Source: Candidatus Marinacidobacterales bacterium
GTDB taxonomy: Bacteria > Acidobacteriota > Vicinamibacteria > Marinacidobacterales > DATDRI01
DNA length: 64,000 nt
Direction: 5' to 3'
NCBI GenBank assembly: GCA_965226495.1
Contig: OZ245365.1
Span: 3,264,001-3,328,000 of the forward strand
This document shows positions 1-21,746 of the stretch, piece after piece (the first letter of the stretch is position 1; every line of letters starts with the position of its first letter). A model generated the notes under the pieces. It was not told where the DNA came from. It saw only the letters and a list, made by a program, of their open reading frames with translations, and searched no databases. A program made the translations under genes and the position numbers.

Positions 1-788
1 CCGTCCTTGTCTAGAAGCTGGTAAAACTCTTGGTCGTCGGTGCGATGAGAGCGTTCGACCTTGCCGTTCAATCGAGGGGTCCGGGGCGTGATGTATACGT
101 GGGATATGTCTTTGTCCTGAAGGTGCCAGTGAAACCTCGACTGGAATTCAGCACCGTTGTCGGTTTGTATGACGTGAATTCTGAAGGGTAATCGGTGGAT
201 GACTTCATCGATGAACTGAATGGCCGTCTTTTGACTGCAGGCATCGAATATCTTCAAGACCCGTATCCTTGTACAGTCGTCTACGGCCGTGAACTGATAG
301 AACCTTCTCCGGGTGCCTGGTATTCTCTCCAGGAACTTTACATCTACCTGCAGCCTATGACCAGGCTGGCGTCTCTCGTACCGCTTCCAGCGCTTCTTGT
401 GGGCTCGATGTTTTTGACTTGCGGGCAATCGACTCAGGCCATTGCGCTCCAGGACTCGGTGAACCGTGGAAGCGGCGATTTTTATCTGATGATATCGATG
501 CAGGTAGGAAGCGATTCTCGCCGGACCAAAGTGGTAGTTTTGCCGCAAGTAGAGAATCTTGCTGACCGTCTGTTTGGGAGTCTCACGGGGGCAATTCTTG
601 GGCCTCCTTGGTCTATCACAGAGGCTGGCCTCGCCATGGGCCTCGTACCGAGCCAGCCACTTGTAGAAAGTCTTCCGCGAGATCCCGAAATATCTACAAG
701 TTCTTGAGACATTATGAGTTGTTTCGGCTGCGTGACGAATGATCTTCATTCGCCAATTCACTAGCCGCTGTCGTTCCGTCTTCTTCAT
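1..788 (-). CDS. IS481-family transposase (3' end runs off the window; separated from its RBS by the IS256 insertion)
   Basis: Manual translation from ATG at 788: MKKTERQRLVNWRMKIIRHAAETTHNVSRTCRYFGISRKTFYKW (HTH)...RYERRQPGHRLQVDVKF...TAVDDCTR...IQTDNGAEF...NGKVERSHRT (rve/DDE core). Absent from the ORF track because there is no stop codon in the window. Confidence 0.9.
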   Translation of the reverse strand, partial: MKKTERQRLVNWRMKIIRHAAETTHNVSRTCRYFGISRKTFYKWLARYEAHGEASLCDRPRRPKNCPRETPKQTVSKILYLRQNYHFGPARIASYLHRYHQIKIAASTVHRVLERNGLSRLPASQKHRAHKKRWKRYERRQPGHRLQVDVKFLERIPGTRRRFYQFTAVDDCTRIRVLKIFDACSQKTAIQFIDEVIHRLPFRIHVIQTDNGAEFQSRFHWHLQDKDISHVYITPRTPRLNGKVERSHRTDDQEFYQLLDKD

Positions 789-791
789 GTT

Positions 792-2190
792 GGTGATGTC
801 TTAAGATTCCTGTCAAAGAAAAACGATGTATGGTTCCCCAAGCTCAAACCCGTCCCCGTCATGGGACAGAAAAGGAGAACCATACATCATGGGAAAGGTA
901 CTACCGAGTCAGCGATTGCTCAAGCAGTTCGAGGAACAACTGGTATTTGGGGAGATGAATCTCTCGGAGATCGTCCGGTCGGGAGCTCAGATGATGCTTC
1001 AATATGCGTTGGAGCGCGAGGTGACGGAGGCGTTGGGTCGAAACTACTATGAGAACGCTCCGGCAACGACGAAGGAGAAGGGACGACGCAACGGGTATGA
1101 GTCGCATCGGGTCCTCACGGGCGAGGGAGCGGTGACGGTGCAAGTGCCGCGGGTACGAGAAACAGAGAAGGTGTTTCAGTCAAAGATTCTCGACGCCTAC
1201 GTGAGCCGGACCGAGAAACTCGATGAACTGATCGCGCGGATGTACGTCCACGGGATGTCGACGCGTGACATTGAGGCGACGTTCGCGGACGTGCTGAGCG
1301 GCACGGGTGTCTCGAAGTCGGTGGTGAGCCGGGTCACACGGTGTCTGTCGGAGGATTTCGAGGCGTTTCGAAAACGGGATCTCTCGAACGAGAAGCTGTT
1401 GTATCTCGAGCTCGACGGCACGTACCTGCGCTACCACCAAGGAGCGGAGAGGAAAGAGCCCATCCTCGTTGCGACCGGCTATCGCGCTGATGGGACGCGA
1501 GTTCTTCTTCATATCGGTGTCGGCAACCGAGAATCCTACGAGAACTGGAAGGGGTTCTTGCAGGAGATGGTGGCCCGAGGAATGAGGGAGCCGTTGCTCA
1601 TCGTGACGGACGGGAATCCTGGAGTGCTCAAAGCGATCGCAGAGGTCTTCCCTCGAAGCCTCAAGCAACGTTGCCAGAAGCACCGCCTCGAGAACATCCT
1701 GGGCAAGGCTCCGAAGGAAGTGCGCGACGAACTCAAGGCGGCCATCCTTGAGTCGTTCCATGCGAACAGCTACGAGCAAGGGCTGAAGAAGGGTCGGGAG
1801 GTGATCGCTCGGTACCGTCAACGATTCCCGAGCGCGATGAAGTGCATGGAAGAGACCCTCGAAGCGTGTCTTCAGGCGCTACGCCTTCCTGCGGCGCATC
1901 ACAAAAGGCTTCGCACGTCGAATCTACTTGAGCGCACGTTCGGAGAGCACAAACGTCGCACAAAGGTCATTCCTCACTTCTTCACCGAGGAGGCCGCGAT
2001 GAAACTCTCGTTCGCTGTGCTCTTGGCCGTCGCAAACAAATGGCGCGGCGTGAGGATGGATGTCTTCGCCGCTAGGAAAGTCGAGGAGCTTCGCAACGAG
2101 CTTCTCCCGCAAGGCACGTCGGAGGAATCAGCAGCTTAACCGAGCGCGGGGAACCGTACGGAGATTTGACAGGAAAATTAAGACTTGACC
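792..2190 (+). mobile_element. IS256-family insertion sequence, 1399 bp, with 8-bp target duplication
   Basis: 26-bp imperfect terminal IRs: GGTGATGTCTTAAGATTCCTGTCAAA (792-817) vs the reverse complement of 2165-2190, GGTCAAGTCTTAATTTTCCTGTCAAA (4 mismatches). Direct repeat TTCATGTT at 784-791 and 2191-2198. Confidence 0.93.
826..2139 (+). CDS. IS256-family (Mutator-like) transposase
   Basis: RNGY..R, VPRVR, MYVHGMSTRDI, YLELDGT, IVTDG, QRCQKH and RTSNLLER motifs. The real start may be the ATG at 889. Confidence 0.95.
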   Translation: MYGSPSSNPSPSWDRKGEPYIMGKVLPSQRLLKQFEEQLVFGEMNLSEIVRSGAQMMLQYALEREVTEALGRNYYENAPATTKEKGRRNGYESHRVLTGEGAVTVQVPRVRETEKVFQSKILDAYVSRTEKLDELIARMYVHGMSTRDIEATFADVLSGTGVSKSVVSRVTRCLSEDFEAFRKRDLSNEKLLYLELDGTYLRYHQGAERKEPILVATGYRADGTRVLLHIGVGNRESYENWKGFLQEMVARGMREPLLIVTDGNPGVLKAIAEVFPRSLKQRCQKHRLENILGKAPKEVRDELKAAILESFHANSYEQGLKKGREVIARYRQRFPSAMKCMEETLEACLQALRLPAAHHKRLRTSNLLERTFGEHKRRTKVIPHFFTEEAAMKLSFAVLLAVANKWRGVRMDVFAARKVEELRNELLPQGTSEESAA

Positions 2191-3882: not shown

Positions 3883-4785
3883 ATGAAGAACCTAGTTCCC
3901 CTGCCGTATCGCCGGGTCTCGGTCCAGCCCTACGAACGCGAGATGACGGAAAAGCCCATCCGCGCGCACCTGATGGGCCGGGAGACGTATCGGCGGACGG
4001 ACTTCATCGTCCTGAGGAAGGGCCCAGACAGTAAGGAGACGGCGGTCGTCGAGGTCACGGCCCCCGATAGGGAGAGTCTCTTCAGCCCCATCGATTCGGT
4101 CCGGATCGTGGCCCTGCCCGAAACCTGTGTCTTCGTCGAAGCCCCGGAGACCGATCCGGCCAACCCCTCCTCCCTGGCAGCCAAGGCGCACGAGCTCGGG
4201 ATCGAGGGCGAGCAAACGCTGGTGGTGCGCGGCAAGTACGAGCACGTCGGCTTCATTCACCACCCCGATCCCATGGTCATCCGTGTCGTAGAAGTTTCTC
4301 CGCCGGAGCCGCCCAAGCTCTTCGACCTCGCCCAACGCGTGCTCAGCTATGCGGAGCTTCCCCCAATACGGTTGGAGCTCACCCGCATCGACCTGAACGA
4401 GCTCGCCGAAGGCCACTCCCCTTCCGCCTTTCTGGTACCTTGCCGCTCCGGAGGACTGGATGGGCTCAAGGCACCGGTGTACTTTCTGGACGAGCGTCCG
4501 GCACGGCTCGATTGGACGATGATCGGGTGCGAGCGCAGTCTACAGTTCCATCGTCACTACTACGGCGACGAGCCGCCCCGCATAGAGCTCTGCCCGCGCC
4601 AATTGGCCGGCGAGAACGACGCTCCAACGCTACTCAAGTGTTGCCTCCTCGAGTTCGATTCCGAGCTCGACGAAAATGTTGCGATAGCACCCTGGGGCGC
4701 TGATCTGGCGATGGTGGAGAAGGCCATTCGTCAACTCGTGGCGGTCGCGGAGCGCGCACCCGCCGAAGCTACCAAAGCTACGTGA
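3883..4785 (+). CDS. Cys-rich uncharacterised protein, first gene of the putative coenzyme M operon (XcbA position)
   Basis: 300-aa ORF with PCRSGG, GCERS..FH, ELCPR, LLKCCLLE and PWGA motifs, 18 bp upstream of comA. Confidence 0.75.
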   Translation: MKNLVPLPYRRVSVQPYEREMTEKPIRAHLMGRETYRRTDFIVLRKGPDSKETAVVEVTAPDRESLFSPIDSVRIVALPETCVFVEAPETDPANPSSLAAKAHELGIEGEQTLVVRGKYEHVGFIHHPDPMVIRVVEVSPPEPPKLFDLAQRVLSYAELPPIRLELTRIDLNELAEGHSPSAFLVPCRSGGLDGLKAPVYFLDERPARLDWTMIGCERSLQFHRHYYGDEPPRIELCPRQLAGENDAPTLLKCCLLEFDSELDENVAIAPWGADLAMVEKAIRQLVAVAERAPAEATKAT

Positions 4786-4803
4786 CATAGGAGAAAAGCA
4801 TTC

Positions 4804-5640
4804 ATGACCAAAGCTTGGACTTCCATCTTTCCTGAGCTGGCGGCCCGCTCGCGGAAACCACGAACTCGCGGCGTGACGATGCTGCTGGACAAGTGCCAGG
4901 GCCCCGCGGCCACCGAAGATCTCCTGGCCATGTCGGGGGACTACATCGACTTTTGGAAGATGTCTTACGGAACGTCGGCTCTCCTCGACGACGGTTTCCT
5001 ACGTCGCAAGATTGAAACGATCGGCCAGCACGACATCATCGTCCACCCTGGCGGCACATTGGCGGAATACGGGATCATGCGAGGTCTCACCCGAGAGTAC
5101 GTCCGACACTGCCAGGCTCTCGGTTTCACCGGTGTCGAGATCTCGGATGGCACGATCGAAATGTCGCCCAGTGTGCGCCGGGATGCCATTCGGTACGCCC
5201 GGGATCTCGGTTTAACCGTCATCACCGAGGTCGGTAAGAAAGACCCCAACGAGCAACCTGCGGTCGAGCTGCTAGCGGAACAAGCGCTAGGCGACTTCGA
5301 TGCGGGCGCCTCCTGGGTCATCGTCGACGCGCGTGAGTCGGGTCGAGGAGTGGGGGTGTTCGACGCGGATGGCACCGTCCGCGAGGAAGCTGTCGATGCT
5401 ATGGTCGATATCTTGGAAGGCCACCTCGATAAGATGATCTGGGAGACGCCGCTCAAGAAACAGCAGGAGTACTTCATCATCCGCTTCGGCCCGCATGTCG
5501 GACTCGGCAACATCCAACCGCGCGACGTCCTGGCACTTGAATCGATGCGCACCGGTATCCGCTTCGAGACTTTCCACGCCTTTGCCGAGAAGCTCCTCGA
5601 AGAGGCCCAGCAGGCTCGAGACGCGGCGGACGACGGATAA
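4804..5640 (+). CDS. comA: Phosphosulfolactate synthase (ComA/XcbB)
   Basis: RKPRTRGVTMLLDK, YIDFWKMSYGTS, PGGTLAE, EISDGTI, TEVGKKD, DARESG, GLGNI and LESMRTGIR are ComA-family motifs. Confidence 0.93.
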   Translation: MTKAWTSIFPELAARSRKPRTRGVTMLLDKCQGPAATEDLLAMSGDYIDFWKMSYGTSALLDDGFLRRKIETIGQHDIIVHPGGTLAEYGIMRGLTREYVRHCQALGFTGVEISDGTIEMSPSVRRDAIRYARDLGLTVITEVGKKDPNEQPAVELLAEQALGDFDAGASWVIVDARESGRGVGVFDADGTVREEAVDAMVDILEGHLDKMIWETPLKKQQEYFIIRFGPHVGLGNIQPRDVLALESMRTGIRFETFHAFAEKLLEEAQQARDAADDG

Positions 5641-5651
5641 CGAGAGAACCC

Positions 5652-7247
5652 ATGGTTTTTGGCGACCCCCCCTCCGACGCCCTCATCCGAACCGCCTATG
5701 CGCGCGAGGCGGGCGACACGGCTATCCTTTATAAGGGGATGAGCCTGGCCGATATCGCCCACGTCGTCGGCTTGGTGGAGTCCAAGATCATTCCCCGCCA
5801 GGCGGGAGGCGAGCTCTTGTGGGCATTGCTAGAAATCCATCCTTCACCCCCGATGGATTTTGCCGTCGATCCCGGCCGCGGTGATTCCTACTCGAACCGC
5901 GAGGCTTACTTGAGAATGCTCACTCCCTCGGCCGGATGGCTGTCGGCAGGCCGGGCGCGGCGCGAGTCCACGACGACCGGTTATCGAATCGCCGTCCGAG
6001 AGCGGTTGCTGAGCTTGGCCGGAGCACTCGGCGACTGCGCCGCGGCGGCACTCGAGCAATGTGACGCGCATCGAACGACTCTCTTCCCCGACTACACGTA
6101 CCTTCAGCCGGCTCAACCCACCGTGTTCGCGCATTACCTCCTGACGTTCGTCTACCCCATGCTCCGTGATCTAGAGCGTCTCGGTGGCGCCTTCGCGCGT
6201 ACCAATGTCTCGCCGGCCGGCTGCGGCAGCGTGAACGGAAGCCGGCTACCCTTGGACCGCGAGGCGCTTTCCCAAATGCTCGGCTTCGACCGCCCCATCC
6301 CGCACGCACGCGACGCCATGTGGCAGGCGGACGGCCCGATCGAAAACGCGGCACTCATCACCGCGGTGCTCATCAACCTCGACCGCCTGGCCGAAGACCT
6401 GCAGATCTTTTCGACATCCGAGTTCGGGCTCGTCGAGTTGGCCGACCGCCATGCGCGCCCGAGCGTGATCATGCCGCAGAAGAAAAACCCGTACTCGCTC
6501 GCCTATCTCCGAGGGCTTGCCGGGGTTTCCATCGGCACCTTGGCTGCGATGGCTGCGGTCGCCAAGACGCCTTCCGGACAGATCGACAATCGCATGTTCG
6601 CTTATGGCGACGTACCGCGGGCGCTCGATCAAGCGACGGACGCAACACGGTTGATGGCCGACGTGCTCCGAGGGCTCACTGTGAAGACGGATGTCGCTGA
6701 AAATCGAGCCGCACAAGACTTCCTCGGTGCGACCGACTTGGCGGAAGTCATCATGATCGAGTGCGAGATCGACTACAAAACCGCGCACCGTATCGTAGCC
6801 CGAGCCATTCGGGAGGCCCTCGAATCAAACGAAGTAGGCGAATCGGCGCTAGCCATCGAACGACTGGAAGCCGCCGCCGAAGCCACCATCGGAAAAAAAC
6901 TCGGCCTCTCGAAGAAAAGAATTCGCGAGGTGCTCGACCCGGCGAGTATCGTCGCCACGCGCACCGGTATCGGAGGCGCCGCGAGCGAATCGGTGAGCGA
7001 GATGATCGCCGCATGCAGAAATGGCCTGAACGAAAATGAAGCGTGGCGCCTGGAGACGGGAAGGAAACTCGTGGAGGCCGAAACACGATTGGGAATGAAG
7101 GCCACACTACTGAAGATCGTTCCCGCCGAGCCCGCTGAGAAAGACGGCTCGCCTGAATCGCAGCAAGCCGAAACCAGTTCTTGGGAAAAGGAGTTCGAAG
7201 ATCTCCCCAAGATGCCTCCCGGGCGCCGCCGATTTCCAGCCGAATGA
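5652..7247 (+). CDS. Argininosuccinate lyase-like aspartase/fumarase-superfamily enzyme (XcbC-like)
   Basis: PDYTYLQPAQP, SPAGCGSVNG, RLAEDL and SVIMPQKKNP. Lies directly after comA. Confidence 0.85.
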   Translation: MVFGDPPSDALIRTAYAREAGDTAILYKGMSLADIAHVVGLVESKIIPRQAGGELLWALLEIHPSPPMDFAVDPGRGDSYSNREAYLRMLTPSAGWLSAGRARRESTTTGYRIAVRERLLSLAGALGDCAAAALEQCDAHRTTLFPDYTYLQPAQPTVFAHYLLTFVYPMLRDLERLGGAFARTNVSPAGCGSVNGSRLPLDREALSQMLGFDRPIPHARDAMWQADGPIENAALITAVLINLDRLAEDLQIFSTSEFGLVELADRHARPSVIMPQKKNPYSLAYLRGLAGVSIGTLAAMAAVAKTPSGQIDNRMFAYGDVPRALDQATDATRLMADVLRGLTVKTDVAENRAAQDFLGATDLAEVIMIECEIDYKTAHRIVARAIREALESNEVGESALAIERLEAAAEATIGKKLGLSKKRIREVLDPASIVATRTGIGGAASESVSEMIAACRNGLNENEAWRLETGRKLVEAETRLGMKATLLKIVPAEPAEKDGSPESQQAETSSWEKEFEDLPKMPPGRRRFPAE

Positions 7248-7271
7248 GCGCTCGAGTCAAATCTTAATTTT

Positions 7272-8663
7272 ATGCCATCTCACATCTCCGATTCGCTGAT
7301 CTACCGGAGCTCATGGGGCACCGAGGAAACGCGTGCGATATTCGACGACGAGCCCCGAACCCGCGCTTGGCTCGAGATCCTGGCCGTGCTGGCGGAAAGC
7401 CAAGCGGAAGTAGGTCTCATCCCTGCCGGTGATGCCAAGAAAGTAGCGCGCGCTTGCCGAGAGATGACGCTCGACACCGAGTTCTTCGAGGAGGTCCGGA
7501 AGGGTTTCGAGGAGACCAATCACACCACGCTCGGCCTCATTCGCGCCGTCCAACGCCGTTGCCCCGACGGCTCGGGCGAATGGGTCTACTACGGTGCCAC
7601 CGTACAAGACGTCGTCGACACCTGGACCATGATGACGGTCGCGCAAGTATGGTCCATCGCGTTCCGGGAGCTGAAAGCGCTCGAAGAGAATCTCCTTAGG
7701 CTCGCGGAGACTCACAAAGATACGGTAATGCCCGGTCGTACGCACGGCCAGCCCGGACTCCCCATCACCTTTGGTTTCAAGGCGGCAGTCTGGGCGAGCG
7801 AGACCCGACGCCACATCGCGCGCCTCAAAGACATTAGAAGTCGCATCGGAGTGGGTCAGCTCGTCGGCGGTGTAGGCAGCATGTCCTCCTTGGGTCCGCA
7901 GGCTTTCACGTTGCAAGAGAAGTTCTGTTCTCGCCTAGGGCTTCGACCGTCGGATATCTCATGGACCACCGCGCGCGACGTCTTTGTAGAATGGTTCCAG
8001 CTGCTAACCCTCATCTCCGGTACCGCAGACAAAATGGGGCATGAGATCTACAACCTGCAGCGTCCCGAGATCGGTGAGGTGACCGAAGGTTTCGTACCGG
8101 GAACGGTGGGGAGCATCACGATGCCGCACAAGCGCAACCCCGAAATCGCGGAGCACCTGGGCACGCTGGCGAGAGTAATTCGTCACAACACGGCGCTCCT
8201 GTCAGAATCTCAAGTTCACGACCACGAGCGGGACGGGCGAGCTTGGAAGTCGGAGTGGGCGGTTCTGGCCGAGACATCGATGGCGGCGGCAAAGCTTCTC
8301 GAGTTGACCAACACGATGATCCAACATCTCGACGTCCACGCCGACCGAGCGCTCGCCAATCTGGAAGCGAGCAAGGGCTTCGTGCTGTCGGAAGCCGTCA
8401 TGCTGAAGCTAGCGGAGCACGTTGGCAAGCAAAGCGCTCACACATTAATGTACGAGACCGCGATGAAGGCGCATGAGGCAGATCGTCCGCTAAAGGACGC
8501 CGTCTTAGAAAATGATGCCATCCGCAAGCACCTGTCCGCGGAGACCATCGAGGCTCTTTTCGACTACCGGCGACATACAGGCTTCTGTAGCGAGCAAGTC
8601 GATCGGGTGCTGGCGCGAGCCAAGAAGGAGAGGGAGAGGGAGAGGGAGAGCGACTCGAAATGA
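7272..8663 (+). CDS. Adenylosuccinate lyase-like enzyme (XcbD-like)
   Basis: YGATVQD, MPGRTHGQP, GSITMPHKRNP, HERD and an ADSL-type C-terminal domain. Confidence 0.85.
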   Translation: MPSHISDSLIYRSSWGTEETRAIFDDEPRTRAWLEILAVLAESQAEVGLIPAGDAKKVARACREMTLDTEFFEEVRKGFEETNHTTLGLIRAVQRRCPDGSGEWVYYGATVQDVVDTWTMMTVAQVWSIAFRELKALEENLLRLAETHKDTVMPGRTHGQPGLPITFGFKAAVWASETRRHIARLKDIRSRIGVGQLVGGVGSMSSLGPQAFTLQEKFCSRLGLRPSDISWTTARDVFVEWFQLLTLISGTADKMGHEIYNLQRPEIGEVTEGFVPGTVGSITMPHKRNPEIAEHLGTLARVIRHNTALLSESQVHDHERDGRAWKSEWAVLAETSMAAAKLLELTNTMIQHLDVHADRALANLEASKGFVLSEAVMLKLAEHVGKQSAHTLMYETAMKAHEADRPLKDAVLENDAIRKHLSAETIEALFDYRRHTGFCSEQVDRVLARAKKERERERESDSK

Positions 8664-9073
8664 AACCCTGTTTCTACATCGGGTTGGCACTGATTCTATT
8701 CACGTTGGGAGGGTGTGGCAACGGAGAAGGCACCAAGAGTGGCGAAACCAACATCAAACCCCTCCCCACCGGCAACCCGACAGACGGAGAAAGCGTCTTC
8801 TTGGGCACGTGTATCAAATGCCACGGCAAAGATGCGACCGGGATCGAAGGTTCAGGAACCAATCTGACCATCAGCGAGTTCGTCAAAGCTCATACTGATG
8901 CCGAGTTGGTGGAGTACATCAAGACCGGACGCGCGATGAACGACGCGCTCAACACGACGGGGATCGCGATGCCCCCGTACGGCGCCAATCCAATGCTAAC
9001 CGATCAGGATCTCGCCGACGTCGTGGCTTACTTACGAGCCGTTCAGCGTGCACCCGATTCACCGACGAACTGA
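8660..9073 (+). CDS. Lipoprotein monoheme class I cytochrome c
   Basis: Signal peptide with LGGC lipobox, CIKCH heme motif and distal AMPP Met. ATGA overlap with the upstream stop. Confidence 0.85.
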   Translation: MKPCFYIGLALILFTLGGCGNGEGTKSGETNIKPLPTGNPTDGESVFLGTCIKCHGKDATGIEGSGTNLTISEFVKAHTDAELVEYIKTGRAMNDALNTTGIAMPPYGANPMLTDQDLADVVAYLRAVQRAPDSPTN

Positions 9074-9087
9074 GGAAAAACATACCC

Positions 9088-10083
9088 ATGTCGACTCCCA
9101 CTCGTTTCGAGCTAGGCATTTTTCCCACACCTCTCGTCGAGGCCTCGCGCTTATCGCAAGCCCTCGAGGGTCCACGCATCCTTATCAAGCGCGACGACCT
9201 CACGGGTTTCGGCTTCGGTGGCAACAAAGTACGTGGACTCGAGTATTCCATCGCGGACGCCATCGCGCAGAAAACCGATGTCGTCGTCACCGGAGCGGGC
9301 CCCCAATCGAACCACATCCGCGCCACCGCGGCCGCGGCGCGAGCGGCGGGGCTCGATGTGGTCGCCGTCATGCACGGTGACCGGCCCGCCGAGACGCAGG
9401 GCAATTTTCTTCTCGATCAATGGCTAGATGTCGAGATCCGTTTCACTAACGATCCCGACCGCAGCCTCTTAGATCAGAAGATCGAGGAAGTCGCCGAGGA
9501 GCTCCGGCAATCGGGGCGACGACCGTATGTCATTCCGCGGGGCGGTTCTTCGGGACTCAGTGCCTGCGGTTACGTGCAGTGTGCCCGTGAAATGGGGGAG
9601 CAGCTCGTAGACCGCGGCGCCAGACCCCACTGGCTGGTCATCGCAACCGGGGGCGGTGGCACGCATGCGGGTCTCCTTGCCGGTTCGAAGATTTACGATG
9701 CACCGTATCGCATTCTCGGCGTCACGGTGAGCCGTCCGCCGGAGGAGTGCGAGGAACGCATCGGACGCCTGGCGCGTGAGGCGGCGAAGCTCGTCCGGCC
9801 TCAAGGTGATCCTATCCAGATCGCTCCCGACGACATCTCTGTCCGTGACGGCTTCATCGGCGAGGGGTACGGCATTCCCTCGCCGGAAGGCATCGAAGCC
9901 ATCCGCCTGCTAAGCCGGACAGAAGGAATGTTCTTGGATCCCGTCTATACCGGCAAGGCCATGGCCGGCCTTATTGGTGAGATCCGAGCGGGGCGCATTA
10001 GGAAGGGCGAGACGGTCGTCTTCGTTCACACCGGAGGAGAGCCTGCCCTCTTTGCCTACCCGGAGATCGCAACGCGTTCATGA
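9088..10083 (+). CDS. PLP-dependent D-cysteine desulfhydrase-family enzyme (XcbE-like)
   Basis: IKRDDLTG..GGNK, QSNH, GGGGTHAG, LDPVYTGKA and HTGG. Thr/Thr at the positions where ACC deaminases have Glu/Leu. Confidence 0.88.
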   Translation: MSTPTRFELGIFPTPLVEASRLSQALEGPRILIKRDDLTGFGFGGNKVRGLEYSIADAIAQKTDVVVTGAGPQSNHIRATAAAARAAGLDVVAVMHGDRPAETQGNFLLDQWLDVEIRFTNDPDRSLLDQKIEEVAEELRQSGRRPYVIPRGGSSGLSACGYVQCAREMGEQLVDRGARPHWLVIATGGGGTHAGLLAGSKIYDAPYRILGVTVSRPPEECEERIGRLAREAAKLVRPQGDPIQIAPDDISVRDGFIGEGYGIPSPEGIEAIRLLSRTEGMFLDPVYTGKAMAGLIGEIRAGRIRKGETVVFVHTGGEPALFAYPEIATRS

Positions 10084-10737: not shown

Positions 10738-13700
10738 ATGAACAATTCTTACACTCACCGAACAGCTTTCATCGGCGCTCTAGTGCTGATCGCGATGGTG
10801 CCCCGGGTCGCTGCCGAGCCCTATGATCCGGATGTTTACCAAAATCTGGAGTGGCGTTTCATCGGTCCTTATCGCGGCGGCCGCGTGACGACCGCGGTAG
10901 GTGTCCCTGGACAAGCCAACGTCTACTACCAAGGGGCAACCGGCGGCGGCGTTTGGAAAACCACCGATGCTGGACTTTCTTGGAAAAACGTCTCTGACGG
11001 TTTTCTCAAGACCGGCTCGGTGGGCGCGATCGCCGTAGCTCCATCCGATCCCAACGTCGTGTACGTGGGCATGGGAGAGGTTTGCATTCGGAGCAACTTC
11101 TCGCACGGAGACGGGGTCTACAAATCGACCGATGCCGGTAAAACCTGGACGCATGTCGGGCTCTCTGACTCGCGGCAAATCGGTCAGATCCGCGTCCATC
11201 CCGAAAACCCCGACCTGGTCTACGTCGCGGCGCTGGGTCACGTCTTCGGCCCCAACGAAGAGCGAGGCGTATTTCGGTCCAAGGACGGGGGGACGTCGTG
11301 GGAGAAAGTCCTTTACATAGATGACAAGACCGGCGCGGTCGATTTGAGCCTGGATGTTACGAACCCCAACGTCATCTACGCAGCTATGTGGCAAGTCATT
11401 CGAAAACCATGGGGCATCCTTCCGCATGGGCCTGGAAGCGGTATCTACAAAACGACGAACGGTGGAGATTCCTGGGAAGAGCTCACCCGCGGCCTGCCAG
11501 GGACGGGTCTCGGAAGGATCGGCGTTTCGGTCTCTCCCGTCAATCCCAACCGAGTGTGGGCGCTGGTCGAGGCTGACGGCGGGGATCTCTTTCTTTCCGA
11601 CGACGCCAGCGTCTCTTGGACTATGGTCAACGACGATTTTCATTTACAGCGGCGACCTTATTACTACGGCCACATCTATGCCGATACTCAAGAGGTCGAC
11701 TCTGTCTACGTCCTCACCTCTCCCTTCATGAAGTCGATAGACGCGGGGAAGTCCTTCGCGCATATCGAAGTGCCTCACGGGGATAACCACGACCTTTGGA
11801 TCGCGCCCGACGACAACAACCGCATGATCAACGCCAACGATGGTGGCGCAAACGTATCCTTCGACGGAGGAAAGAGCTGGAGTCGAATCGATAACCAGCC
11901 TACCGCTCAGTTCTATTGGGTCATCACGGACGACCGGTTCCCCTATCGTGTTTACGGTGCCCAACAGGACAATACGACAGTCTCGATCGCAAGCCGGACG
12001 GCAACCCCCGGAATCGCGGCGAGTGATTGGTATGCGGTGGCGGGGGGCGAGAGCGGCTACATTGCTCCCAAACCGGGAGCTCCCGACGTAACCTACGGGG
12101 GCAGCTATTGGGGATTGATGACGCGTCACGATCGCCGCACCGGCGAAAATCGTGACGTTTCGCCTTGGCCGGCTCGGCCGATGGGGCGCGTGGGAGCGGA
12201 TCTGAAGTACCGCTTCAACTGGACGTATCCTATTGTGATCTCGCCGCATGATCCCAACACGATCTTTGCCGGGGCGAACGTCGTCTTCCGCTCCACCAAC
12301 GAAGGGCAGAGCTGGGAAGTGGTCAGCCCGGACCTAACTCATGACGACAAAAGCAAGCAGCGGCTGGGTCGACTCTCCGACTTCTACTGCACGATCACTT
12401 CGATCGCCGAGTCGAAGCTCCAAAAGGATTTGCTCTGGGTGGGGTCCGACGACGGAAGAGTTCACCTGACACGGAATGGCGGGCAAGAGTGGCTAGAGGT
12501 CACGCCTTCAGAAATGGAAGCGTGGAGCCGGATAAACGTCATTGAACCCTCGCCTCATGACGCGGGCTCGGCGTACTTGGCGGTGAACCGATACCAGCTC
12601 GACGACTACCGACCGTATGTTTACAAGACCAAGGACTTTGGAAGCAGCTGGAAGCGGGTGGCGAAAGGTATCCCCGAAAACGCGTTCGTCAGAACGGTGC
12701 GCGAAGATCCCAAACGCAGAGGGCTCCTTTACGCCGGTACTGAAACGGGCGTCTACGTATCTTTCGACGACGGAGAGAACTGGCAGTCGCTGCGAGGCAA
12801 CTTGCCGATCGTGCCGATTACCGACCTCGCGGTCAAGAACGATGACCTCGTCGCCGCCACTCAAGGCCGCGCTTTCTGGATCTTGGATGATCTGACACCG
12901 CTCCATCAGCTCACGCCAGAGATCGCCGCATCTCCTTTCTTCCTATTCGAGCCACGCGACGCATACCGGGTGAGGAAACACCGCTCCTTTCTCCGAGACC
13001 CGAACACGGGTCAGAATCCCCCCGACGGCGTCATCGTGGACTATTTACTGCGAGATAGTTCAGGCGTAGTGACTCTCGAGTTCCTCGACGCCGATGGCGG
13101 CACGATCCAGTCCTTAAACAGCTCGGACCAGGAATCGAACGTCACTGTGGAACCAGGACTCAATCGTTTCGTCTGGGATATGCGCTATCCCGATGGCACG
13201 GATCTCACAAATGGCAGTCATCTATTCGGCGGCAATCTCCGTGGGCCCATGGCCGTCCCAGGCACTTACCAGGTCCGCCTAGCGGTAAGCGGTGAAACGA
13301 CGAGTGCTTCGTTCGACATCAGAAAAGATCCAAGGGTTACCGCCACCCGTGAGGATCTTCAGGCTCAGTTCGACTTGCTCATCGCCATCCGTGATGGTGT
13401 GAGCGACGCCCACACCGCGGCCAACCAGATCCTCGCCGCTAAGGAACACGTCCAGAACTTATCGACTGAGGACGCGAACATAGAGACCCAAGCAAGGGAG
13501 GTTGACCTGAAGCTCACCGCAGTCCTGGACGAGCTGGTGGAGCTGCGCTTCCGTGGCATCGACGACCAGATGCTCGTCTACCCGCTGCAGCTAAACGCAA
13601 AGATCGTGTCTTTACAGCGAGTGGTTGCTAGCGCAGAACGCCGGCCCACCGATCAGTCCGTGGAAGTCTTTAGAGTGTTACGGTCTCAGCTCGACACGCA

Positions 13701-13800
13701 ACTCAGGAAGCTCGACGCGATCATAGCGGACGAGGTCAAGGCCCTCAACCGAGCGCTCAGGAAGAGCGGCCTCCGCGAATTGAGAACGGACCTGGAATAA
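10738..13800 (+). CDS. Secreted VPS10/BNR-repeat beta-propeller glycosyl hydrolase-like protein
   Basis: WRFIGPYRGGR, many Asp-box repeats (KSTDAGKTW, SFDGGKSW), HGDNHDLWI and ATQGRAFWILDD. Confidence 0.88.
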   Translation: MNNSYTHRTAFIGALVLIAMVPRVAAEPYDPDVYQNLEWRFIGPYRGGRVTTAVGVPGQANVYYQGATGGGVWKTTDAGLSWKNVSDGFLKTGSVGAIAVAPSDPNVVYVGMGEVCIRSNFSHGDGVYKSTDAGKTWTHVGLSDSRQIGQIRVHPENPDLVYVAALGHVFGPNEERGVFRSKDGGTSWEKVLYIDDKTGAVDLSLDVTNPNVIYAAMWQVIRKPWGILPHGPGSGIYKTTNGGDSWEELTRGLPGTGLGRIGVSVSPVNPNRVWALVEADGGDLFLSDDASVSWTMVNDDFHLQRRPYYYGHIYADTQEVDSVYVLTSPFMKSIDAGKSFAHIEVPHGDNHDLWIAPDDNNRMINANDGGANVSFDGGKSWSRIDNQPTAQFYWVITDDRFPYRVYGAQQDNTTVSIASRTATPGIAASDWYAVAGGESGYIAPKPGAPDVTYGGSYWGLMTRHDRRTGENRDVSPWPARPMGRVGADLKYRFNWTYPIVISPHDPNTIFAGANVVFRSTNEGQSWEVVSPDLTHDDKSKQRLGRLSDFYCTITSIAESKLQKDLLWVGSDDGRVHLTRNGGQEWLEVTPSEMEAWSRINVIEPSPHDAGSAYLAVNRYQLDDYRPYVYKTKDFGSSWKRVAKGIPENAFVRTVREDPKRRGLLYAGTETGVYVSFDDGENWQSLRGNLPIVPITDLAVKNDDLVAATQGRAFWILDDLTPLHQLTPEIAASPFFLFEPRDAYRVRKHRSFLRDPNTGQNPPDGVIVDYLLRDSSGVVTLEFLDADGGTIQSLNSSDQESNVTVEPGLNRFVWDMRYPDGTDLTNGSHLFGGNLRGPMAVPGTYQVRLAVSGETTSASFDIRKDPRVTATREDLQAQFDLLIAIRDGVSDAHTAANQILAAKEHVQNLSTEDANIETQAREVDLKLTAVLDELVELRFRGIDDQMLVYPLQLNAKIVSLQRVVASAERRPTDQSVEVFRVLRSQLDTQLRKLDAIIADEVKALNRALRKSGLRELRTDLE

Positions 13801-18119: not shown

Positions 18120-19478
18120 TCACTGGCGCTCGCTCACTCCGGTTGCCTCAATCGGTAGGGTAATTGTGAATTCGGTGCCCTTTCCCACCTGGCTGGCTAC
18201 TTCTATCTGGCCACGGTGTTTGTGCACAATGTGCCGAGCGGCCGTTAAGCCCAGGTTCGCTCCGACTCTAGAACCTTGGGATCGAAAGCCCAAATCGAAG
18301 AGGGTCCTCGCGTCTTCCGGCGACATGCCTTTTCCGGTATCTAAGATCTTAGACGTAGAGGGTCCTCGCGTCTTCCGGCGAACACTCTTCTCCTTCGTGA
18401 AAGTTCTAATTGTGACGCTGCCCCGCCATTCAACCGCCTGTATGGCAGTCATCAGTAAAGCCATGAAGACTTGGTTGAGCTCGCCGTGGTTACCATGAAT
18501 CTCCGGAATACAGCCATACTCTTTTACCAAACTTATTCCCTCCTTAATTTCGTTTTGAATTAAGGTTAGGGTACTTTCAATTCCTTCGTGAATGTTGGCC
18601 TTCTGGAATTCGCCTTCGTCCAATCTAGTAAAACTCTTCAAACTCTTTGCTATTCTGGCGATTCTGTCACTGGCAGATGAAGAAGTCTGACTATTTTCTT
18701 GGAGAATTCTAAGGCACTCTTGATAATCACGACTATTCTTGACTTCAGCAGGCGTTTCGCTATTTTCCAAAATCTGCTCCAACCTAGCGACAGAACGAAT
18801 TAACACGTCCGCATTACCCTTAATCACGCCAATAGGCGTATTGATTTCGTGAACAATGCCTGCGGTAAGCTGTCCGAGGGCCGCCATCTTCTCAGATTGA
18901 ACCAATTGAGCCTGGGCAGTTTGTAACTCGCTCTCCACTCGCTTGCGCTCCAGTTCAGCGGTGGCTCGTGCAGCGAAGATTTTGAAAATCGACAGGTCAC
19001 GATGTTCACCAGTCATGGGCTTATCATCTAACGTGGCCAAGTGGCCTAGCACATCGCCCGAAGAGTCGACTAGTGGTATCGCCAGATAGCTCTCCGCACC
19101 TAATTCGACGAGTGCTTCATCCTCCGGAAAAGCAGATTGCACATTTTCAGCATAGCGACAAATCTCGCCGCGCAACACTTTCTCGCAGGGTGTTCCAGCA
19201 AGATTGTAGCCATAGTTGTCCATAAAGCTATGGTCTTTCCAAAAGGCCAGTGTTCTGACTCTGGTTTTCACCTCCGTAAACTCGGAAATGAAGGCATAGC
19301 GTACGTGAAGCGCGCAGGCAAGATTTCGGACAAGCGAACGAAAAAAATCATCGCCCGTCAATGGAGCTGTACCTTCAATGATCGTGCGGAATATGTCATC
19401 CCGACTTGCTTGGGTTCTCTGCATCGCTGTCGGGCCCACAACACTCGATCCAAAGGACTGACTGACGCAATAGCTCAT
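18120..19478 (-). CDS. Cytoplasmic GAF-domain sensor histidine kinase
   Basis: GAF (FFRSLV...GTPCEKV...YLAIPL), QSEKMAALGQLTAGIVHEINTP H-box, LNQVF, DTGKG, G.GTEF. The start may be the ATG at 19424. Visibly more AT-rich than its flanks. Confidence 0.85.
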   Translation of the reverse strand: MSYCVSQSFGSSVVGPTAMQRTQASRDDIFRTIIEGTAPLTGDDFFRSLVRNLACALHVRYAFISEFTEVKTRVRTLAFWKDHSFMDNYGYNLAGTPCEKVLRGEICRYAENVQSAFPEDEALVELGAESYLAIPLVDSSGDVLGHLATLDDKPMTGEHRDLSIFKIFAARATAELERKRVESELQTAQAQLVQSEKMAALGQLTAGIVHEINTPIGVIKGNADVLIRSVARLEQILENSETPAEVKNSRDYQECLRILQENSQTSSSASDRIARIAKSLKSFTRLDEGEFQKANIHEGIESTLTLIQNEIKEGISLVKEYGCIPEIHGNHGELNQVFMALLMTAIQAVEWRGSVTIRTFTKEKSVRRKTRGPSTSKILDTGKGMSPEDARTLFDLGFRSQGSRVGANLGLTAARHIVHKHRGQIEVASQVGKGTEFTITLPIEATGVSERQ

Positions 19479-20326
19479 TGTAAGCTCCTTCTTCTAACGT
19501 CGTTTCTCAGAGAGTTTCGATCCGCCGTTCTAGGTTTCGGTGCCAACCGAGCCCGAGAGCCTCGGGGTCCTCGCGGGAGACAAGGTTGCTCGCTTGCGAC
19601 GCGCAGCTTTGCTGGCCCATCTGTCTCTTGATAGCGCTCGAGCGCGTTTCGAACCTTCGTGCGTCCCCGGTGGAGCAACACTTTTTGATTGGCCTCGGTC
19701 AGTCCAAGTACTTGACAGACCTCTTCCGCGGACCAGCCCTCGATATCCCGCAGGGTGACGACCTCGGCTTGTCGCGGGGGCATCGACTGAAGTTCCTTCC
19801 GGATCATCGTGATCGTTTCTGTCGACAAGAGACGATCTTCGGGCGTCTGTCTCCATCGGCGAGGCGGGGACATCCAGGCGTGTCGATCGTCTGAGAATCG
19901 CTCGGCTGCCGCCGCAAGATTGTCGGCAGGGTTCTCGATTTCACTCAGGGACGAAAACGGGACCGTCCGTCGTTCCCTCTTGGCTCTCGTTCGCGCGACA
20001 TTCATGAGAATCGAGAAGATCCAAGTTTTGAGTGAAGAGCGACCCTCGAAGCGCTCCAGGCCTCGAATCGCCGCGAGCCAAGTCTCCTGAACTACCTCTT
20101 CCGCCATCTCTCGATCAGAAAGGACCGATCTCGCGAGGCCAAGCATGGACGACGAGAGCCGCTCGAGCAAGACCTCGAACGCCCTCTCGTTGCCGGCCCG
20201 GAGTGCCTCTATGAAGTCCTTCTCTTGATGGTATCCGTCGGCGCTCTGCCCCCGCTGGAGAGGCCACAGGATGGTGGTCGGGCTCGTTGCAACCGTTTCC
20301 ATTTGCTGGGTCATGTGCTGGGTCAT
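19475..20326 (-). CDS. ECF RNA polymerase sigma factor
   Basis: AEEVVQETWL, FEGRSSLKTWIFSILMN and VVTLRDIEGWSAEEVC...VLLHRGR. AAGGAG RBS before the ATG at 20326. Carries a C-terminal tail of uncertain meaning. Confidence 0.9.
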   Translation of the reverse strand: MTQHMTQQMETVATSPTTILWPLQRGQSADGYHQEKDFIEALRAGNERAFEVLLERLSSSMLGLARSVLSDREMAEEVVQETWLAAIRGLERFEGRSSLKTWIFSILMNVARTRAKRERRTVPFSSLSEIENPADNLAAAAERFSDDRHAWMSPPRRWRQTPEDRLLSTETITMIRKELQSMPPRQAEVVTLRDIEGWSAEEVCQVLGLTEANQKVLLHRGRTKVRNALERYQETDGPAKLRVASEQPCLPRGPRGSRARLAPKPRTADRNSLRNDVRRRSLQ

Positions 20327-20485
20327 GGAATTTCTCCTTTCCTGGAAAGCAATTTGCCAGTGGCCCCTCTGGAACACCATGCCGAGCAGATCACGGGTGC
20401 GTCAAAGCGTCTTCACGATGCAAATAATTGATTCTTAAAGAGTTGGTGAGTTGGATCACGCAGAAAAGGGTGGGTTGCCCCAAGG

Positions 20486-20516
20486 AAAAAGGTCCCGCGC
20501 CTTTCGGCGGGGACCT
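20486..20516 (-). terminator. Intrinsic terminator after the cytochrome P460 gene
   Basis: GC hairpin AGGTCCCCGCC-GAAA-GGCG(C)GGGACCT followed by a T-tract on the minus strand. Confidence 0.6.
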
Positions 20517-20540
20517 CGAGGATGAGCGCCAAACCCTAAG

Positions 20541-21746
20541 CTATTTGGGCGGATACTCCGTCAAGACAAAGTCCTTGCCCGTGGAGTGGCAGCCGGAGCA
20601 GAGGGGAAGGCCGTTGCCAACCCCGACAATGTCACTGCTGTCTTCCGTGTTGGTCGTTTCGTACCAGAACCAACCCTGCCCTTGAGCGCTGTCTTCTTGG
20701 GTCTTGACCATCACCGCCCAGCCGAGAAGCTCGGAACCATCCTCGCTGTACATTTCCTTCACGATCGATGAGCCGGCCGGATGCGACGCATTTCCTGCCG
20801 CGAGGGAAGCGTCGATCTTGGCATCCAAGTAGACGCGAACCGGCCAGCTGAACTTGGCATGGGGTCCTCGGGAAGCGTGTTTCTCAGATTCTTGGCTCTC
20901 GAATGACCTGTATGAGCCAGCTTTGAGGAATTCGTGAAGCCTTTGGGCTTCGGTGGGCACGACCGAGTCCACGGTAGGTGTATCGGCTGTCGCTTTCATG
21001 GCCGACTCGGACGCGCCGAGCATCGTATCCGCCATGCGATCGTACGACTCGTCGCCGCTTCGCATCGCCGCGCCGCTGGGAGACGCTGAGGAAGGAGAGC
21101 CCAGAGAGCTCTGCCGCGGCCCCTTTGCGGCGCGCAGCACCGGATAGTACTGGGTAAAGACCCCATTATCCGCGGCAGCCGCTTCGTGGCAGGAGCTACA
21201 TGCCGCGGCTGGGAATTTCTCTGCGGTGTCCGCAAGCGGATAGCTATGGCCGAAGCTGAAGTAAGCCCAGTTCCCTGGCTCGTCGGGAAAACGGTTCGAG
21301 TCCTTGACAGCGGCCTCCAAACCGATGAACTCGCCCATGAAGTAGCCTCTACCGCTAGCGGCCGCCTTCGAGCCCACGCTGACGAGCTCCTTGACCAGGA
21401 CTGTCCCCTCCCGGAAATTTCCGGTTTCCATGTAGTGGTCGTAGCTCTCGGGATCGATATAGACGTTGTGGAAGTCCGGGAACGGCGCTTCGGGCGGATT
21501 CATGTCGTTGGGTGTCAGCGGCGTTCCGATGTACACCCACGTCCGGTAACCCGTGGGCCGGATGAGCCAACCCTGGCCATCGAAGTGGACCGGCGTTTCC
21601 TCCTGCGGTGGCTCGGCCGTCGCAAAGAGAGCAGGACTGAGGATGTAGCTCGATGCGAGAACCGTCAGCCCCATAACAACGGCCAGGCCCACAACCCTCG
21701 ATCCAAAGGACTGAATGACGCGATACTTCATTTGCATTTCGTTCAT
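20541..21746 (-). CDS. Tandem two-domain cytochrome P460-family protein (two CxxCH)
   Basis: Signal peptide. Domain 1: WVYIGTPLTPN..N, GTVLVKELVSVG, GYFMG..IGLEAAVKD, CSSCH, VFTQYYPVL. Ser-rich linker. Domain 2: GSSIVKEMY, AVMVK, GWFWYE, CSGCH. Confidence 0.88.
   Translation of the reverse strand: MNEMQMKYRVIQSFGSRVVGLAVVMGLTVLASSYILSPALFATAEPPQEETPVHFDGQGWLIRPTGYRTWVYIGTPLTPNDMNPPEAPFPDFHNVYIDPESYDHYMETGNFREGTVLVKELVSVGSKAAASGRGYFMGEFIGLEAAVKDSNRFPDEPGNWAYFSFGHSYPLADTAEKFPAAACSSCHEAAAADNGVFTQYYPVLRAAKGPRQSSLGSPSSASPSGAAMRSGDESYDRMADTMLGASESAMKATADTPTVDSVVPTEAQRLHEFLKAGSYRSFESQESEKHASRGPHAKFSWPVRVYLDAKIDASLAAGNASHPAGSSIVKEMYSEDGSELLGWAVMVKTQEDSAQGQGWFWYETTNTEDSSDIVGVGNGLPLCSGCHSTGKDFVLTEYPPK

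Follow-up and report, generated by a model that had tools for sequence, protein, structure and literature searches.

A stretch of 64,000 nucleotides from the genome of a Candidatus Marinacidobacterales bacterium (GenBank assembly GCA_965226495.1, contig OZ245365.1, forward-strand positions 3,264,001 to 3,328,000; hereafter, the window) carries at positions 3883–10083 an operon in which all five enzyme genes of bacterial coenzyme M (CoM) biosynthesis are encoded. Its six open reading frames (ORFs) lie co-directionally on the plus strand in the order xcbA, xcbB, xcbC, xcbD, a gene for a lipoprotein cytochrome c, and xcbE (Table 1), and the intergenic gaps, from 5' to 3', are 18, 11, 24, −4 (an overlap) and 14 bp. 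The initial annotation, made from the letters of the window, had described six tightly spaced genes at exactly these coordinates and had read them as an apparently complete xcb-type CoM operon. The operon turned out to be fuller than this first reading, in which the leading gene was an unknown Cys-rich protein: this gene encodes XcbA, and the five-step pathway is therefore complete. Gene families were called with Pfam and NCBIfam profiles, whose bit scores were compared with curated cut-offs, and the proteins of the megaplasmid region of Xanthobacter autotrophicus Py2 were run as tblastn queries against the whole host genome (labeled G000; other genomes and loci carry G and L labels), which is complete in one contig of 6,337,479 bp. 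The best host-genome match of each of the Py2 queries XcbA1 to XcbE1 was in the window, with identities of 63.4% (XcbA1), 45.0% (XcbB1), 44.3% (XcbC1), 49.8% (XcbD1) and 49.3% (XcbE1). None of the six ORFs is disrupted, and their lengths match those of the orthologues. Five Cys residues of XcbA (C187, C216, C237, C253 and C254) are invariant across six aligned sequences; in Py2, XcbA is a [2Fe-2S] protein that reduces sulfoethanethioaldehyde to CoM (described in Wu et al. 2022, PMC9457059). For the last ORF, XcbE was the top-scoring model and the gene occupies the position expected in the cluster. The start codon region of the cytochrome c gene overlaps the stop codon of xcbD, and its product also had a weak match to the NCBIfam ccoP model (40 bits).

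Table 1. Features of the xcb locus and related genes of the host genome. Coordinates are window positions unless marked as genome positions; scores are in bits, with curated cut-offs in parentheses.
Feature	Coordinates	Strand	Predicted product, profile scores and remarks
IS481-family transposase	3..788	−	NF033577 249.5; ORF runs off the window start
IS256-family transposase	826..2139	+	NF033543 295.3
HNH-domain protein, 372 aa	2367..3485	−	Pfam HNH 32.9; weak IscB-model match 34.6 (175)
xcbA	3883..4785	+	XcbA-family [2Fe-2S] reductase, last step; Pfam DUF7714; NCBIfam NF052538 443.2 (150)
xcbB/comA	4804..5640	+	Phosphosulfolactate synthase (phosphoenolpyruvate + sulfite); TIGR03849 297 (280); Pfam ComA 270.5
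xcbC	5652..7247	+	ArgH-like lyase, phosphosulfolactate to sulfoacrylate + phosphate; NF052535 565.2 (575, just under); argH model 258 (279.5)
xcbD	7272..8663	+	PurB-like 3-sulfopropionylcysteine synthase; NF052536 650.2 (600); purB model 302.6 (326.2)
Cytochrome c	8660..9073	+	Mono-haem lipoprotein; LGGC lipobox, CIKCH haem motif; Pfam Cytochrome_CBB3 42.4, Cytochrom_C 40.3
xcbE	9088..10083	+	Pyridoxal phosphate (PLP) enzyme, D-cysteine desulfhydrase family; NF052537 399.9 (450, under); runner-up CuyA 334.6
Island 5' half	genome 3254926-3260485		Just upstream of the window; CcoN-/CcoO-like oxidase, small membrane ORFs, AhpD-like CMD, two-domain rhodanese, short MetE-like, OsmC-like
MetE-like protein, 390 aa	genome 3258770-3259942		Without folate-binding half
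MetE-like paralogue	genome 4182208-4183341		57% identical to the above; OsmC-like gene 2 kb away; not beside xcb
Housekeeping ArgH	genome 1695565-1696920		525.2
Housekeeping PurB	genome 5223306-5224598		547.2

The two lyases of the operon are distinct from the housekeeping enzymes of the same superfamily, as had been supposed initially. Separate ArgH and PurB genes are present in the genome, both outside the window, and the window lyases stay under the cut-offs of the argH and purB models. In a 47-row tree of the aspartase/fumarase family, XcbC (22 rows, SH-aLRT 97) and XcbD (22 rows, SH-aLRT 99) each form one side of a branch; both clades contain the window and Py2 proteins, and the housekeeping copies are long-branched outsiders. 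The acidobacterial host proposed at the outset also agrees with the closest XcbA loci, whose proteins are 89% and 79% identical to that of the window and which both come from metagenome-assembled genomes of Candidatus Marinacidobacterales (Vicinamibacteria, Acidobacteriota). Downstream genes for ApaG, a methyltransferase, a pseudouridine synthase and a CinA-like protein were considered as further members of the unit and rejected, being of housekeeping type and conserved among close relatives only. Directly after the operon is a 1020-aa BNR/sortilin-repeat protein (10738-13800, plus strand; 135.9 bits to an F510_1955-type glycosylhydrolase model, under its cut-off), whose conservation beside xcb ends in more distant loci. 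Elsewhere in the window (18120-21746, minus strand), a 401-aa cytochrome P460-domain protein adjoins an ECF-type sigma factor and a histidine kinase.

The initial annotation had noted that alkene and epoxide genes are missing from the window, and this extends to the whole single-contig genome. No orthologue of the epoxyalkane:CoM transferase (EaCoMT, XecA) was found there (best tblastn match 23.5% identity, 80.9 bits), nor one of 2-KPCC (XecC; best match 25% identity), and the short-chain dehydrogenase/reductase matches to the Py2 Xec queries were generic. A genome-wide search for soluble di-iron monooxygenases was also negative (Phenol_Hydrox 23.1 bits, below the cut-off of 24.4), copper monooxygenases not having been searched. 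XecA and XecC orthologues were likewise not found in the five XcbA-bearing acidobacterial genomes, in which the best matches were 28–35% (XecA) and at most 28% (XecC) identical; the corresponding values in Xec-linked loci are 70–81% and 51–69% to Py2. CoM in this host would thus not be expected to serve epoxide carboxylation.

The xcb cluster makes up the 3' half of a conserved island of 12 genes. This was missed initially; the conserved unit reaches approximately 13 kb upstream of xcbA, past the start of the window. The order of genes in the island is CcoN-like, CcoO-like, AhpD-like, rhodanese, short MetE-like, OsmC-like, xcbABCD, cytochrome c and xcbE. In three loci (L010, L089 and L091) all 12 genes are co-directional, with gaps of 2 to ~280 bp except for one of ~500 bp that contains small membrane ORFs, and the OsmC-like gene ends 5–77 bp before xcbA. 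The host genome is collinear on both sides with the locus of a genome of the same genus (L009 of G002), but the spacing from the OsmC-like gene to the HNH gene is ~5.9 kb in the host and ~1.8 kb in L009. The host interval holds a broken amidohydrolase gene and two insertion sequences (IS), IS481 and IS256. The IS256 element had 20 blastn matches in the genome, 10 of which, counting the element itself, span 1,264 bp or more at 96–100% identity; IS481 had two further copies of ~950 bp (three in total). As both IS families are multi-copy at >99% identity, transposition in this genome looks recent and active. At window positions 3-2139 (genome 3263700-3266250), a copy of IS256 has inserted beside an IS481 copy or into it. 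G002 also has the HNH gene that separates the island halves (81% DNA identity to L009:8549-9664), and its xcb genes are 86% identical to those of the host at the DNA level. As to the amidohydrolase, of two overlapping ORFs (L003:17595-19222, minus strand, corresponding to genome 3261595-3263222) one matches the N-terminal and the other the C-terminal half of Amidohydro_1, which points to a frameshifted pseudogene; a 76-bp IS256 fragment lies beside it, and the contigs of four sequencing runs are without 200 bp at this pseudogene relative to the reference (L128:5149-5350). We also looked among the read contigs for an IS-free form of the island; the contigs of the four runs break at the IS elements, and an apparent 1,407-bp skip across IS256 is explained by the other IS481 copies in the genome. 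Among the 20 sequencing data sets from seven studies listed for the locus, none is of RNA.

We further checked the occurrence of XcbA by scanning its alignment over one genome per species. This yielded 110 confirmed stretches, of which 80 loci were kept with up to 10 kb of flank and classified with the Py2 Xec proteins and the host neighborhood proteins as probes; loci and genomes counted here and below include related ones and are not independent. Forty-seven of the 80 loci, from Pseudomonadota, Ktedonobacteria, Actinomycetota and Myxococcota, were linked to Xec genes (at least 45% identity). Xec-linked xcb clusters occurred in Methylocystis, Methylocella and Methylocapsa (L045, L052, L054, L056, L059, L065, L069, L071 and others), and such clusters of methanotrophs have already been described (PMC11507031); one was also present on a Bradyrhizobium chromosome (L036). 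Six Burkholderiales loci (L026, L031, L033 and L037–L039) had XecA (70–73% to Py2) on the opposite strand and a divergent MetE-family gene (~30% to XecA) directly upstream of xcbA, and no XecC, XecD or XecE was found within their flanks; this may be a third cluster layout. Seventeen loci, four from Acidobacteriota and 13 from Chloroflexota, had no Xec gene and shared an alternative gene set. The remaining 16 carried neither, most of them being left unclassed because their flanks are short.

The 17 non-epoxide loci have a general co-directional order: TusA-DsrE (in some), CcoN-like, CcoO-like, small membrane ORFs, one or two CMD genes, the rhodanese/short MetE-like/OsmC-like genes (in some), xcbABCD, cytochrome c (in some) and xcbE. 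CcoN-like and CMD genes were each present in 11 of them, the rhodanese/MetE-like/OsmC trio in seven and the cytochrome c in four. In seven of the 13 Chloroflexota loci, all from Anaerolineae, genes for MtaA-like proteins, a corrinoid protein and RACo flank xcb. These loci encode up to three MtaA/CmuA-family proteins, the best of which had 227.6 bits to PRK06252, "methylcobalamin:coenzyme M methyltransferase" (cut-off 244), and a methyltransferase-cognate corrinoid protein with 200.5 bits (cut-off 215.3). Besides RACo, the Anaerolineae flanks hold a cobalamin adenosyltransferase and a TrmB regulator, and FolD adjoins xcbA in L018. A cytochrome P450 gene was embedded in two non-epoxide islands, between xcbC and xcbD in L014 (13328-14620) and in L096 (6733-7956); the best NCBIfam models for both were TxtE-like or cyclodipeptide-associated, all under cut-offs.

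Phylogenetic analysis of XcbA (86 rows, quick IQ-TREE, midpoint-rooted for drawing only, so that the root is not established) suggested that the non-epoxide context requires at least two changes across well-supported branches. It was found in a deep separate clade (L076, L081 and L096), in which the same neighbor genes are kept despite an XcbA only 42–50% identical to that of the window, and also in several basal lineages of a large clade, inside which the Xec-linked group of proteobacteria and Ktedonobacteria is nested (SH-aLRT 82).

Among the neighbor proteins, the CcoN-like subunit was far closer to solved cbb3 CcoN (243.8 bits) than to NorB (24.3 bits), and the possibility that this haem-copper gene encodes a nitric oxide reductase was rejected on these scores. 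Both oxidase subunits stay under their NCBIfam cut-offs (CcoN-like, TIGR00780, 297.8 bits vs 583; CcoO-like, TIGR00781, 90.7 vs 200.65), and the CcoN-like gene was the only one of its kind found in the host genome at E ≤1e-10. There is no di-haem CcoP, and xcb itself holds the gene for the mono-haem lipoprotein cytochrome c. This cytochrome c gene also lies between xcbD and xcbE in L009, L010, L074, L089 and L091, and it follows xcbE in L014; each of the seven loci with this gene contains a CcoN-like gene. As it occurs only in CcoN-like-bearing loci, its product is best read as the periplasmic electron donor of the CcoN-like oxidase.

The short MetE-like protein has Zn ligands (H259, C261, E295 and C356) that are invariant in the family alignment (A2) and shared with Py2 XecA. 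Its S16, E67 and D203 align with the homocysteine-binding residues of 3RPD, and Ser, Glu and Asp bind homocysteine in MetE and MesD (reported in Price et al. 2021, PMC7857596). At the positions of the homocysteine-type Ser and Glu, by comparison, XecA has Asn and Arg. Judged by these residues, it looks like a folate-independent methionine synthase outside the assigned subfamilies; no NCBIfam cut-off was reached (best 204 bits vs 406). Searches of the host genome found no MesX (the control was also silent), no stand-alone corrinoid protein (B12-binding_2 matched only the 1231-aa MetH ORF) and no MtaA-like protein (URO-D matched hemE only).

We then asked how closely these genes follow xcb. XcbA was present in five of 41 relatives, G000 included, and in a single genome of an even sample of 401 from the phylum, which was G000 itself. 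Orthologues of the MetE-like protein with at least 91% identity occurred in four of the 41 relatives, all XcbA-positive, and intact CcoN-like copies with at least 86% identity occurred only in the same four. In the fifth XcbA-positive relative, the CcoN-like gene is truncated and lies next to a transposase. In three XcbA-negative relatives (G001, G016 and G026) the CcoN-like gene survives in fragments only, which suggests that the island was lost as a unit. In G001, which belongs to the same genus (G001:C17:270412-277143), the fragments are 91% identical over residues 75-213, with a stop codon, and 83% identical over residues 1-87, and suggest that the whole island has decayed there.

A metagenome scan with the MetE-like protein yielded 39 loci. 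Among 11 of these with at least 65% identity, five had XcbA, one (L092) had a partial XcbA and four had <700 bp of flank; L098, the only locus without xcb that had room for it, showed no xcb within 10 kb on each side. That contig (L098:10001-21170) encodes a MetE-like protein (71%), OsmC, CcoN/O-like proteins and CMD; after these come a DinB-family protein similar to mycothiol transferase (77.8 bits, under cut-off), two thiamine pyrophosphate enzymes and a cysteine desulfurase-like protein. The 25 loci with a MetE-like protein of 45–65% identity were all without xcb, and we regard them as a paralogous subfamily, since a 57%-identical copy is present in G000 itself (Table 1). The idea that the MetE-like trio is specific to CoM, which we had considered, was weakened by these 25 loci, and the association was refined, with the help of the 57% paralogue, to an xcb-linked subfamily.

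Based on these observations, we suggest that the intact xcb operon probably makes CoM, and that this CoM is used not for epoxides but as a thiol partner of the proteins of the island, together with a high-affinity oxidase. The five steps are established for Py2 and are carried over to this host by homology: XcbB would add sulfite to phosphoenolpyruvate, XcbC would eliminate phosphate to give sulfoacrylate, XcbD would add L-cysteine, the PLP enzyme XcbE would release sulfoethanethioaldehyde and the [2Fe-2S] protein XcbA would reduce it to CoM. The rhodanese could supply sulfite from thiosulfate. CoM may then act as a low-molecular-weight thiol for OsmC/AhpD-like proteins of the thiol peroxidase type, for sulfurtransferases and for Zn or corrinoid methyltransferases, with the thiol proteins co-expressed with the high-affinity oxidase at low oxygen and the periplasmic cytochrome c of this oxidase encoded within the xcb operon itself. 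Most likely, CoM is produced by the host for an as yet undescribed role in thiol redox chemistry or methyl transfer. The initial annotation had also proposed an undescribed role; this part of it stands as an interpretation, for which the conserved neighborhood now provides contextual support.

Several observations weigh against this proposal. The scores of XcbC (565 vs 575) and XcbE (400 vs 450) are under the NCBIfam curated cut-offs, and the two halves of the island are now 7.4 kb apart in the host genome. The modules are separable: G018/L074 has xcb without the MetE trio, and L098 has MetE-like, OsmC and CcoN-like genes without xcb within 10 kb. Conservation of the neighbors may reflect linkage in a horizontally moving island and not a shared function, and the loci are not phylogenetically independent of one another. 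Since the MetE-like protein keeps the homocysteine-binding Ser, Glu and Asp, it may simply be a folate-independent methionine synthase. Moreover, an absence of glutathione could not be used as a sign that CoM is the main thiol: GSH-S_ATP (glutathione synthetase) had no match in G000, but neither did it in 31 of the 41 relatives, so that its absence is not discriminating.

One alternative is that CoM is made and acts in the cytoplasm as a general redox buffer or scavenger of electrophiles, its neighbors being hitch-hikers on a mobile island with no specific link to it. The patchy occurrence of XcbA among the relatives and in the phylum sample, the IS elements and the HNH gene inside the island, the separable modules of L074 and L098 and the missing GSH-S_ATP match would all fit. 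However, the same neighbors surround XcbA proteins of only 42–50% identity in two phyla, translation of the cytochrome c gene is coupled to that of xcbD, this gene was never seen without a CcoN-like gene, and the CcoN-like fragments of XcbA-negative relatives point to loss of the island as a unit. We consider this alternative unlikely.

In a second alternative, CoM would still be used to detoxify alkenes or epoxides, with non-orthologous enzymes doing the work: the MetE-like protein would be a divergent EaCoMT, and some other oxygenase would make the epoxide. EaCoMT, too, is a Zn enzyme of the MetE family; the four invariant Zn ligands are common to Py2 XecA and the MetE-like protein, which also occupies the position of xecA in Xec-linked clusters, and P450 genes are embedded in L014 and L096. 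The resemblance to XecA is distant, however (23.5% by tblastn to 28% in alignment A2), and the homocysteine-type Ser and Glu are kept, for which reason we rejected EaCoMT as the principal assignment of this protein; in addition, 2-KPCC orthologues were not found in the genome and no P450 lies in the island of the host. Such a detoxification route appears rather improbable here. It is very improbable that the cluster has no CoM output in this host, either making another sulfonate or thiol (e.g., with the XcbE-like protein as a cysteate-type sulfo-lyase) or being silenced by IS elements; the sub-threshold XcbC and XcbE scores, the second-best CuyA match of the last ORF (334.6 bits), IS481 and IS256 upstream and a weak promoter-like site before xcbA (9 of 12 matches) are set against six intact ORFs of orthologue length, five enzymes that match Xcb models best and fall in Xcb clades, a G002 locus that also has the HNH gene between the halves yet keeps xcb, and contigs from four runs of four studies that carry the xcb cluster with 0–3 differences per piece.

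A broader and more tentative proposal may be considered, which we regard as possible but doubtful: bacterial CoM might have a second, and perhaps older, non-epoxide function in Vicinamibacteria and Anaerolineae, as the thiol partner of Zn/corrinoid methyl transfer and OsmC/AhpD redox reactions, wired to a dedicated cbb3-type oxidase for low oxygen, with the proteobacterial epoxide pathway recruited later. Methyl-CoM could then be a bacterial one-carbon intermediate, or a methyl donor or acceptor for a new core MetE class. The XcbA tree is compatible with this proposal in that non-epoxide loci lie basally in the clade that includes the proteobacterial Xec-linked clusters, under a root that is not established.

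This analysis adds three things: the leading gene is recognized as XcbA, the epoxide pathway is missing from the genome as a whole, and xcb belongs to a conserved island that brings together a cbb3-type oxidase, thiol proteins and methyltransferases. Across two phyla, the xcb pathway is found in a conserved setting of another kind that has no Xec genes, and xcb genes alone should not be used to mark alkene or epoxide catabolism in annotation. Candidate CoM-dependent enzymes are the xcb-linked short MetE-like proteins, the MtaA-like proteins with their corrinoid proteins and the OsmC/AhpD-like proteins; why bacteria make this "methanogen" cofactor is now directly testable. In the literature we found no description of xcb-type clusters outside the alkene/epoxide context, although the supplementary tables of PMC9457059 and PMC11507031 might list further xcb taxa, and no mention of DUF7714, "XcbA family" or Marinacidobacterales. 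A statement from 2024 limits the known CoM biosynthesis genes to methanogens and aerobic alkene users (main text of PMC11507031), and a moss-metagenome study, in its account of these pathways, ascribes bacterial CoM synthesis to alkene use (PMC11437008).

Several known systems resemble parts of this locus. The short MetE-like protein is comparable to the core methionine synthases MesA–MesD (as characterized in PMC7857596), which likewise have no folate half and have His-Cys-Glu-Cys Zn ligands and Ser/Glu/Asp for homocysteine; among solved structures it is closest to the MesD protein 3RPD (100.9 bits). It differs from them in reaching no NCBIfam cut-off and in the failure to find MesX (with a silent control) or a stand-alone corrinoid protein in the genome, and its subfamily is found beside xcb, whereas the 57%-identical paralogue is not. 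The methanogen systems of MtaA/MtbA, corrinoid protein and reductive activator have similar genes flanking xcb in the seven Anaerolineae loci, where all MtaA-like and corrinoid scores are under curated cut-offs and the methyl acceptor is not readable from sequence; the host genome, in contrast, is without the MtaA-like and stand-alone corrinoid genes of this type.

The closest counterpart of the operon is xcbA1B1C1D1E1 of X. autotrophicus Py2 (pXAUT01, Xaut_5051-5055; as given in PMC9457059), which has the same five families in the order A-B-C-D-E. In Py2, xecA, xecC, xecD and xecE are directly upstream of xcb, whereas the host genome has none of them and its upstream neighbors are the cbb3-type oxidase, AhpD-like, rhodanese, MetE-like and OsmC-like genes. 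The lipoprotein cytochrome c between xcbD and xcbE is a feature of the host, and its xcb genes are on the chromosome of an acidobacterium and not on a plasmid. The etnE-linked clusters described in a Methylohalobius crimeensis study (PMC11507031) are likewise CoM genes in bacteria without an alkene monooxygenase of their own; as presented there, they keep EtnE/XecA, whereas the locus of the host is without it. Another parallel is the Desulfobacterota class "Anaeropigmentia", reported in a preprint (bioRxiv 10.1101/2021.03.22.436540) to have a full CoM pathway and no propylene-degradation genes, with the role of CoM left open. Its pathway is the archaeal-type comABCDE, distinct from xcbC, xcbD and xcbE, whereas that of the acidobacterial host is the bacterial xcb pathway, set in a different conserved context.

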